A DNA stretch of 64,000 bases from Escherichia coli (GCF_003334405.1 NZ_QOWM01000001.1), one strand, 5' to 3'; shown: positions 59,933 through 60,823, numbered from the stretch's first letter. Notes: a model not told the origin generated them from the letters alone. Numbers and translations: made by a program.

Positions 59933-60823
59933 ATGACAATATCGACAACTTCCACGCCGCATGATGCGGTATTTAAATCTTTTTTACGCCATCCAGACAC
60001 CGCGCGGGATTTTATTGATATTCATCTTCCCGCGCCGCTGCGCAAACTGTGTGATTTAACGACGCTTAAACTGGAACCAAACAGTTTTATTGATGAAGAC
60101 CTGCGGCAATATTATTCCGACCTCTTGTGGTCTGTGAAAACGCAGGAGGGAGTGGGTTATATTTATGTAGTGATAGAGCACCAAAGTAAGCCGGAAGAAT
60201 TAATGGCTTTTCGCATGATGCGTTATTCCATTGCGGCAATGCAAAACCATCTTGATGCGGGCTATAAAGAGCTTCCATTGGTGCTCCCGATGCTGTTTTA
60301 TCATGGTTGCAGAAGTCCTTATCCTTATTCACTCTGCTGGCTTGATGAATTTGCCGAGCCTGCTATAGCCCGCAAAATATATTCATCGGCTTTTCCGTTG
60401 GTGGATATTACCGTGGTGCCGGATGACGAGATTATGCAACACCGCAAAATGGCGCTGTTGGAGTTAATTCAGAAACATATTCGTCAGCGCGATCTGTTGG
60501 GATTAGTCGACCAAATTGTTTCGCTGCTAGTTACAGGGAACACTAATGACAGACAGCTAAAAGCCCTGTTTAATTACGTATTACAAACAGGGGATGCCCA
60601 GCGTTTTCGTGCATTTATTGGTGAGATAGCGGAACGCGCACCACAAGAAAAGGAGAAACTGATGACCATTGCTGACAGATTACGTGAAGAAGGCGCAATG
60701 CAGGGCAAACACGAAGAAGCCCTGCGTATTGCTCAGGAGATGCTGGATAGAGGTTTAGACAGAGAGTTAGTTATGATGGTGACCCGACTTTCACCAGACG
60801 ATCTTATCGCGCAAAGCCACTAA
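59933..60823 (+). CDS. rpnB: Recombination-promoting nuclease RpnB (YfcI; transposase-like family)
   Basis: 296-aa [36 protein letters not shown], characteristic of the Rpn/YhgA-like family. Confidence 0.8.

Follow-up and report, generated by a model that had tools for sequence, protein, structure and literature searches.

Positions 59933 to 60823 (+ strand) of a 64,000-nt stretch of Escherichia coli DNA (GCF_003334405.1 NZ_QOWM01000001.1; the whole stretch is hereafter the window) hold rpnB (yfcI), which is very probably one gene encoding two proteins, RpnB-L and RpnB-S, that together form a self-contained toxin–antitoxin pair. This reading rests on published experiments with rpnB and on the anatomy of the gene, which we verified here. 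An earlier note, made from the sequence alone, had described a lone, domesticated transposase-like nuclease gene with a poorly defined role. The name, the family and the solitary setting of the gene held up, but the nested RpnB-S (60662–60823), its key functional feature, had been overlooked. rpnB is an already known and experimentally studied gene, and its presence in the window is a real but ordinary finding.

The identity of the window gene as rpnB is essentially certain. The open reading frame (ORF) listing of the window returned an ATG-started ORF of 296 codons plus a stop, exactly where the earlier note had placed it. Using megablast against 5426 complete E. coli genomes, the set on which all E. 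coli genome counts below are based, the rpnB DNA of the window was found to be 100% identical to that of K-12 MG1655 and several other strains. Identity to MG1655 is likewise 100% over a 1002-bp segment (59843–60844) that includes the gene. In K-12, RefSeq labels the gene rpnB, 'recombination-promoting nuclease RpnB' (WP_000156149.1), and the exact protein is recorded as RpnB on at least 1000 contigs. K-12 RpnB (YfcI, b2305; PMC5350276, PMC10400941) shares with the window gene the 1002-bp segment, the neighbours, the internal Shine–Dalgarno sequence and ATG (at K240–E241 and M244) and the 53-residue RpnB-S, and there is no difference within the gene.

Published experiments on rpnB itself have shown that the protein is toxic and induces SOS, that RpnB-S is made and that RpnB-S, unlike RpnA-S, exerts a specific block. 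Overexpression of RpnB was found by Kingston et al. (2017, PMC5350276) to be toxic, more so than that of RpnA, to induce SOS and, as measured in a conjugal assay, to cause a 19-fold rise in recombination independent of RecA. Zhong et al. (2023, PMC10400941) subsequently reported that translation also starts inside each of the E. coli rpn genes, yielding the small protein RpnS, identical to the C-terminal tail of RpnL, and that RpnS neutralises the toxic RpnL. RpnB was tested directly in this toxin–antitoxin, genes-within-genes study, and the statement that its biological role is poorly defined is outdated. Both RpnB-S and RpnB-L were seen by chromosomal tagging, and RpnB was more toxic when its internal translation start (iTIS) was destroyed. 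RpnB-dependent SOS induction was suppressed by RpnB-S but not by RpnA-S, and a stop codon at D29 of RpnB-S abolished the suppression (PMC10400941).

The sequence and structural marks of this layout are present in the window gene. An in-frame internal start with its own ribosome-binding site precedes the C-terminal domain, with the iTIS at the same position as in RpnA. In RpnA, the combined substitutions K240R, E241D and M244L eliminate RpnA-S (PMC10400941), and the equivalent positions form the Shine–Dalgarno sequence and ATG of RpnB. The DNA of this site is invariant across E. coli, a cryptic clade and E. whittamii. Around the internal start, 52 consecutive nt are invariant among Escherichia lineages whose synonymous divergence (dS) in the N-terminal domain reaches 0.45. 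In an alignment of 57 full-length homologues with 31–69% identity, which served for all conservation counts, M244 is kept in 51 proteins and a Met is found within three positions on either side in 55. Residue 29 counted from M244 is Asp, in agreement with the published D29 mutant. The C-terminal part forms a three-helix bundle like that in the crystal structure of RpnA-S (PDB 7TH0), on which it superposes at 1.1 Å with 33% identity.

7TH0 was also the meaningful PDB sequence match of RpnB. The top hits in the PDB were designer pentatricopeptide-repeat proteins (against residues 253–287, 60689–60793), with E-values down to 3e-10, but each of these hits adds up roughly ten repeats that are insignificant by themselves (i-Evalues above 100) and reflects a resemblance between helix hairpins. 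They were dismissed as repeat artefacts and not taken as homology. A precomputed Pfam match to PF27070 ('HTH_Rpn_C') covers the C-terminal part of the E. fergusonii orthologue (L089 2501–3391). The Pfam-A copy with which the window protein was searched did not report this family, so whether the RpnS domain is annotated varies with the release of Pfam.

Upstream of the nested protein, PF04754 (Transposase_31, YhgA-like) matches residues 8–209 with an E-value of 2.8e-90, over model positions 1–202 of 203. TIGR01784, the NCBIfam model of the Rpn subfamily, reaches 186.9 bits, above its cut-off of 52.1. Such significant full-length hidden Markov model (HMM) matches place the protein in the Rpn/YhgA-like family (PF04754, TIGR01784, COG5464), as had been proposed, and both its identity to the K-12 protein and its position between hisP and yfcH place it in the RpnB orthologue group. 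NCBIfam holds no RpnB-specific HMM. RpnB scores 467 bits on the equivalog model of RpnA, under the cut-off of 583, as a paralogue of that protein, and it is also under the cut-off of the PRK09956 equivalog model. An exhaustive HMMER search of 1.84 billion 50%-identity cluster representatives returned 8242 relatives of RpnB.

RpnA (YhgA) belongs to the same family, has the same domain order and shares the numbering of D11, D63, E82, Q84 and R94 with RpnB. All four PD-(D/E)XK-type catalytic residues are in place in RpnB at RpnA numbering; among the aligned homologues D11 is conserved in all 57, D63 in 56, E82 in 54 and Q84 in 46. Mutation of the same-numbered residues in RpnA removes all of its phenotypes (PMC5350276). 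An AlphaFold2 (AF2) model of RpnB, computed from the homologue alignment, has a mean predicted local distance difference test score (pLDDT) of 91.5, and its nuclease core comprises strands 40–47, 64–70, 73–83 and 116–124. Relative to other Escherichia lineages, the ratio of nonsynonymous to synonymous divergence (dN/dS) in the nuclease domain is 0.02–0.06. Mg2+-dependent DNA endonuclease activity was measured in vitro for RpnA, the purified protein cleaving DNA with little sequence specificity (PMC5350276). By analogy, RpnB is probably a nuclease as well, and SOS induction and toxicity are indirect evidence to this effect.

We propose that RpnB-L (296 residues) would act as a Mg2+-dependent PD-(D/E)XK DNA endonuclease with D11, D63, E82 and Q84 in its active site. 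Left unrestrained, it would cause DNA damage, the SOS response and growth arrest. RpnB-S (53 residues), which corresponds exactly to the C-terminal three-helix bundle of RpnB-L, would be translated in frame from the internal AAGGAG/ATG (M244), probably from a short internal transcript, and would bind and block RpnB-L because the oligomerisation helix is common to both. An L–S complex, demonstrated for RpnA, is likely to form in RpnB too. The match between RpnB-S and RpnB-L would depend on the length of a variable helix segment, the site of a four-residue indel; length-dependent specificity was demonstrated for RpnC and may extend to RpnB. Release of RpnB-L, presumably upon phage infection or other stress, would free the nuclease, and RpnB may have an antiphage function like that demonstrated only for the plasmid-borne RpnP2. 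Since the sequence of RpnS is at the same time that of the C-terminal domain of its toxin, toxin and antitoxin must co-evolve.

Several observations weigh against this model. The internal promoter was not located confidently. Differential RNA sequencing (dRNA-seq) detected a transcription start site within every rpn gene, the coordinates not being given in the text (PMC10400941). The best sigma-70-like match that a lenient scan found in 60380–60662 (60546–60574) agrees at 10 of 12 positions and lacks the −11 A, and a stricter promoter scan did not find this candidate or anything else at the right place. Nuclease activity and the L–S complex have been measured for RpnA, not for RpnB. No antiphage phenotype of chromosomal RpnB has been reported, and protection has been shown only for RpnP2. 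RpnB matched none of the models in PADLOC-DB v2.0.0, a database of 2023 that may predate Rpn, and the gene is surrounded by housekeeping genes (his transport, yfcH, folX, yfcG), with no defence island. Deletion of rpnA-D leaves basal recombination unchanged (PMC5350276), so that no loss-of-function phenotype is known, and absence of the gene from 12% of E. coli genomes means that it is dispensable.

Related systems put the proposed toxin–antitoxin pair in context. The plasmid locus RpnP2-LS (ECOR13) has the same RpnL/RpnS gene-within-gene layout as rpnB. RpnP2 protects against T-even phages (PMC10400941), whereas no such protection has been reported for RpnB; unlike the plasmid-borne RpnP2, RpnB is chromosomal and occupies a fixed site. 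The S modules of RpnA and RpnB are not interchangeable, as RpnA-S does not block RpnB-L. In type II toxin–antitoxin modules (e.g. yhaV-prlF), a proteic antitoxin, helical and helix–turn–helix (HTH)-like, likewise neutralises a proteic toxin by binding it directly. However, rpnB is one gene instead of two, with the antitoxin nested in frame.

The part of the gene shared by RpnB-S and RpnB-L occurs in two length forms. The short allele, present in the window and in K-12, reads EEGA----MQGKH, and the long allele of other strains reads EEGRNDGLILGKR. This 4-residue indel at residues 255–258, 12 residues past M244, falls within a long helix (237–272) of the AF2 model and is not a simple tandem duplication at the DNA level (12 nt). 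Four-residue length variation 8–20 residues past the internal Met has been described in rpn genes (PMC10400941), and the RpnB indel agrees with it in both position and unit length. The short (296-residue) form was found in 3528 of the complete genomes and the long (300-residue) form in 1227, with a deletion allele in the 670 others that lack the gene. Elsewhere in Escherichia, both forms occur in cryptic-clade species, E. whittamii has the long form and E. fergusonii has the short one. Compared to the low dN/dS of the nuclease domain, that of the RpnB-S part is raised to 0.27–0.70. In the comparison with Escherichia sp. E1V33, the N-terminal domain has a dS of 0.39 and the S part one of 0.03; on small site counts, this mosaic points to module exchange by recombination.

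As a tentative proposal, which we ourselves hold to be doubtful, the short and long forms could be mutually non-neutralising specificity types under long-term balancing selection or repeated phage-driven module exchange, the deletion allele (12% of genomes) being a third, 'disarmed' state. The dimorphism across species, the raised dN/dS of the S part and the mosaic divergence are compatible with such balanced specificities but do not demonstrate them.

The same data bear on the idea that the main role of RpnB is that of a housekeeping or adaptive 'recombination-promoting nuclease', which would cut incoming or resident DNA and thereby aid RecA-independent acquisition of foreign genes, with RpnB-S as a mere safety brake. 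The 19-fold rise in RecA-independent recombination and the cleavage of DNA by RpnA with little sequence specificity (PMC5350276) speak for such a role, and the authors of the 2023 study left housekeeping roles for rpn genes open (PMC10400941). However, the recombination effect is seen only on overexpression, and its frequency is unchanged when the four active paralogues are deleted (PMC5350276). In addition, the gene is dispensable in 670 genomes, and both the fast evolution of the S module and its length dimorphism are more readily explained by a conflict system than by a housekeeping one. We regard a primary role in recombination as unlikely.

The 1002-bp segment containing rpnB is present in 4756 of the 5426 genomes, in one copy each and always on the chromosome between hisP and yfcH; none of the true plasmids in this set carries it at the DNA level. 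A single match covers at least 80% of the segment in 4743 of these carriers. The earlier note had called for a comparison of strains for presence or absence of the gene, and the polymorphism indeed exists. All 670 rpnB-minus genomes share one allele, consisting of the left flank, 27 nt and the right flank (ST131-type, L001 1943–1969; window junction 59842/60845). The 27-nt filler and the first part of the right flank align with an internal stretch of rpnB (approximately codons 150–160), agreeing at 29 of 33 nt, with a local score of 46 compared to 18±2.1 (maximum 27) for shuffled sequences, and the right junction of the deletion lies at a CTGG(T/C)GGAT microhomology. This match identifies the 'empty' site as the deletion scar of one ancestral loss. 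The idea that the ST131-type site is ancestral and was never occupied was rejected on account of the rpnB-internal match and because E. fergusonii, E. whittamii and the cryptic clades already have rpnB there.

A strong hairpin that includes the last yfcH codons is retained in both the rpnB-plus and the rpnB-minus allele, and the right breakpoint of the deletion falls exactly at its left arm; no U-run follows this hairpin on either strand. In E. coli SEC470 (L005 1394–2155), an IS1 lies within rpnB at about codon 220, and the gene is annotated as two pseudogene pieces. This insertion is an independent inactivation of rpnB.

A further alternative is that chromosomal rpnB has no current cellular function and is a selfish addiction-type toxin–antitoxin remnant, persisting because its loss is difficult and already in decay in some lineages. 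One ancient deletion removed the gene from 12% of genomes, IS1 disrupted it in SEC470, its surroundings are housekeeping genes and it has no known loss-of-function phenotype, all in keeping with this idea. In contrast, the strong purifying selection on the nuclease domain across Escherichia species (dN/dS 0.02–0.06), the intact active-site residues, the rarity of large disruptions among carriers and the patterned diversification of the S module are not what a decaying remnant would show. Furthermore, because the antitoxin lies inside the toxin gene, one deletion removes both, and loss should escape the classical addiction penalty. A functionless remnant is, in our judgement, quite improbable.

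The history of the locus was followed in a yfcH-anchored search with one genome per GTDB species, scanning the hisP–yfcH gap in the 80 loci returned (L006–L085). rpnB was found in the gap of every surveyed Escherichia locus that reached hisP, namely those of two cryptic-clade genomes, E. coli E69 and E. whittamii. One truncated E. coli locus in the survey also contained rpnB, and a separate look-up showed the same arrangement in E. fergusonii. Outside Escherichia, rpnB was not found in the hisP–yfcH gap of 74 of the 75 other Enterobacteriaceae loci examined. A Citrobacter sp. metagenome-assembled genome (HRGM_Genome_0066; L034 5509–6435) carries a 309-residue Rpn paralogue, 65% identical, proximal to hisP and beside a GNAT gene. 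A motif with the internal Met is retained in this protein, which represents either an orthologue that diverged rapidly or the result of a separate capture at this junction.

In Salmonella and one Buttiauxella the gap measures 40–60 nt, and in most other genera it holds a GNAT acetyltransferase of about 169 residues; Klebsiella-type loci have an additional unannotated pair of 84 and 188 residues. Since both rpnB and the 196 nt upstream of it are also found in E. fergusonii and E. whittamii, the gene was acquired at this Enterobacteriaceae-variable junction before Escherichia diversified. A deletion later removed it from one lineage, to which about 12% of sequenced E. coli belong. Rpn homologues are common on enterobacterial plasmids (4795 of 72,556 records), nearly all of them less than 60% identical to RpnB, and are rare in phage records. 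This distribution fits horizontal mobility of the family by hitch-hiking.

Like insertion sequences (IS; ISNCY and others), rpnB is a single-gene unit with a historical transposase annotation and a patchy bacterial distribution. The Pfam family name is Transposase_31, PHROG 3300 is labelled transposase and the NCBIfam 'ISNCY family transposase' equivalog model gives 459 bits; the gene is present or absent as a single unit, and its homologues are common on plasmids. However, this score is below the cut-off of 583, and the ends of a mobile element are missing. A repeat scan of 59600–61000 for inverted repeats bracketing rpnB gave only 10–11-nt chance pairs straddling the gene. Local alignment for terminal inverted repeats (TIR) scored 15 at the ends of the 1002-bp segment (shuffled, 13.0±2.1) and 15 in the two intergenic flanks (shuffled, 15.7±2.1). 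No flanking direct repeat that would represent a target-site duplication (TSD) was present at the segment borders. These scans and end alignments bear out the earlier statement that the gene stands alone without TIR or TSD.

The remaining evidence is of the same kind. The catalytic domain of RpnB is probably of the PD-(D/E)XK type, not a DDE, HUH or serine/tyrosine one, and this fold is not known in autonomous transposases; rpn genes in general are not mobile elements (PMC10400941). We found no evidence of transposase descent, and the term 'domesticated transposase' goes back to how these genes were annotated in the past. The gene occupies one locus per genome in the 4756 carriers, and its empty allele is a deletion scar with an internal rpnB fragment, not a clean excision. 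No identical copies of the gene with defined ends and duplicated targets appear at new sites in these data. E. fergusonii and E. whittamii have the gene at the same site and between the same flanks, and cryptic clades share the site, which indicates vertical inheritance. We conclude that rpnB is not a mobile element, and the proposal that it encodes the transposase of an IS that is, or recently was, active, as old 'putative transposase / ISNCY' annotations imply, is almost certainly wrong.

The coordinates of rpnB and associated features are collected in the table.

Table. Features of the rpnB locus, in window coordinates
Feature	Position	Strand	Basis
rpnB full-length coding sequence (RpnB-L), toxic, predicted PD-(D/E)XK DNA endonuclease	59933..60823	+	ORF; 100% identity to annotated K-12 rpnB
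Rpn/YhgA-like nuclease domain, N-terminal, residues 8-209	59954..60559	+	PF04754, TIGR01784
Catalytic-residue span	59963..60184	+	D11 59963-65, D63 60119-21, E82 60176-78, Q84 60182-84; codons read directly
Candidate internal promoter of rpnB-S transcript, ATGACA-17 nt-TTTAAT	60546..60574	+	inferred; lenient sigma-70-like scan
Internal Shine-Dalgarno sequence AAGGAG, codons K240-E241	60650..60655	+	6 nt 5' of internal ATG
rpnB-S, in-frame internal coding sequence from M244, 53 residues + stop, antitoxin	60662..60823	+	
Hypervariable segment of RpnB-S/RpnB-L (residues 255-260), 12-nt (4-residue) indel site	60695..60712	+	allele comparison
Strain-variable 1002-bp segment: rpnB + 90 nt upstream + 21 nt downstream	59843..60844	.	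B2 rpnB-plus strain vs ST131 rpnB-minus strain
Strong hairpin, rpnB-yfcH intergenic DNA + last yfcH codons	60845..60891	.	11-nt perfect arms, -31.8 kcal/mol, z -4.5
hisP terminator-like hairpin followed by T-run, end of his transport operon	59743..59766	+	terminator scan

rpnB lies between the argT-hisJQMP block upstream and yfcH-folX-yfcG on the opposite strand downstream. The hisP stop is at 59736, with rpnB starting 196 nt downstream, and the convergent yfcH has its stop at 60871, 47 nt past the end of rpnB. The earlier note had called a position at a junction between operons of different orientation typical of these paralogues. This has some backing, in that a published list of convergent pairs with overlapping transcription includes both yfcH-rpnB and rpnA-bioH (PMC12288877, 2025). 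The hairpin after hisP is kept in E. fergusonii and E. whittamii. A tblastn search found no other rpn paralogues or fragments in the window, and Rfam at the gathering threshold gave no structured RNA in the rpnB flanks, the sole match being a distant tRNA-Arg. An antisense ORF of 81 residues (60087–60332, − strand) and antisense promoter-like sites (60138–60109) were treated as chance occurrences, as no supporting evidence was seen for either.

Elsewhere, the window differs from K-12 MG1655 in lacking the CPS-53/KpLE1 prophage remnant (approximately 10.2 kb, intS to torI) beside argW. The tRNA-Arg CCT (− strand, 17112–17187) directly joins the dsdC side, with a 16-nt overlap at 17112–17127. 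Absence of CPS-53, together with 99.97% identity elsewhere, indicates that the strain is a close relative of K-12, not MG1655, in which the argW site is unoccupied. Coordinates transferred from L087 place yfcU, a fimbrial usher gene, at approximately 28471–31116 of the window. In the K-12 record, which matches this part of the window at 99.97%, yfcU is a pseudogene with an internal stop; the annotation is that of K-12.

For annotation practice, the value of this case is one of calibration: reading the locus as a 'lone transposase-like nuclease' misses the nested protein that explains how the toxin is tolerated. What this analysis adds is modest: allele frequencies in 5426 genomes, the single shared deletion scar, the acquisition before the Escherichia radiation and the variable cargo of the hisP–yfcH junction. 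These points give a finer picture of how one member of a published system has evolved and leave the nature of the gene unchanged. If the short and long alleles were indeed balanced specificity types, chromosomal rpnB would be a polymorphic immunity locus, not a fixed housekeeping gene.
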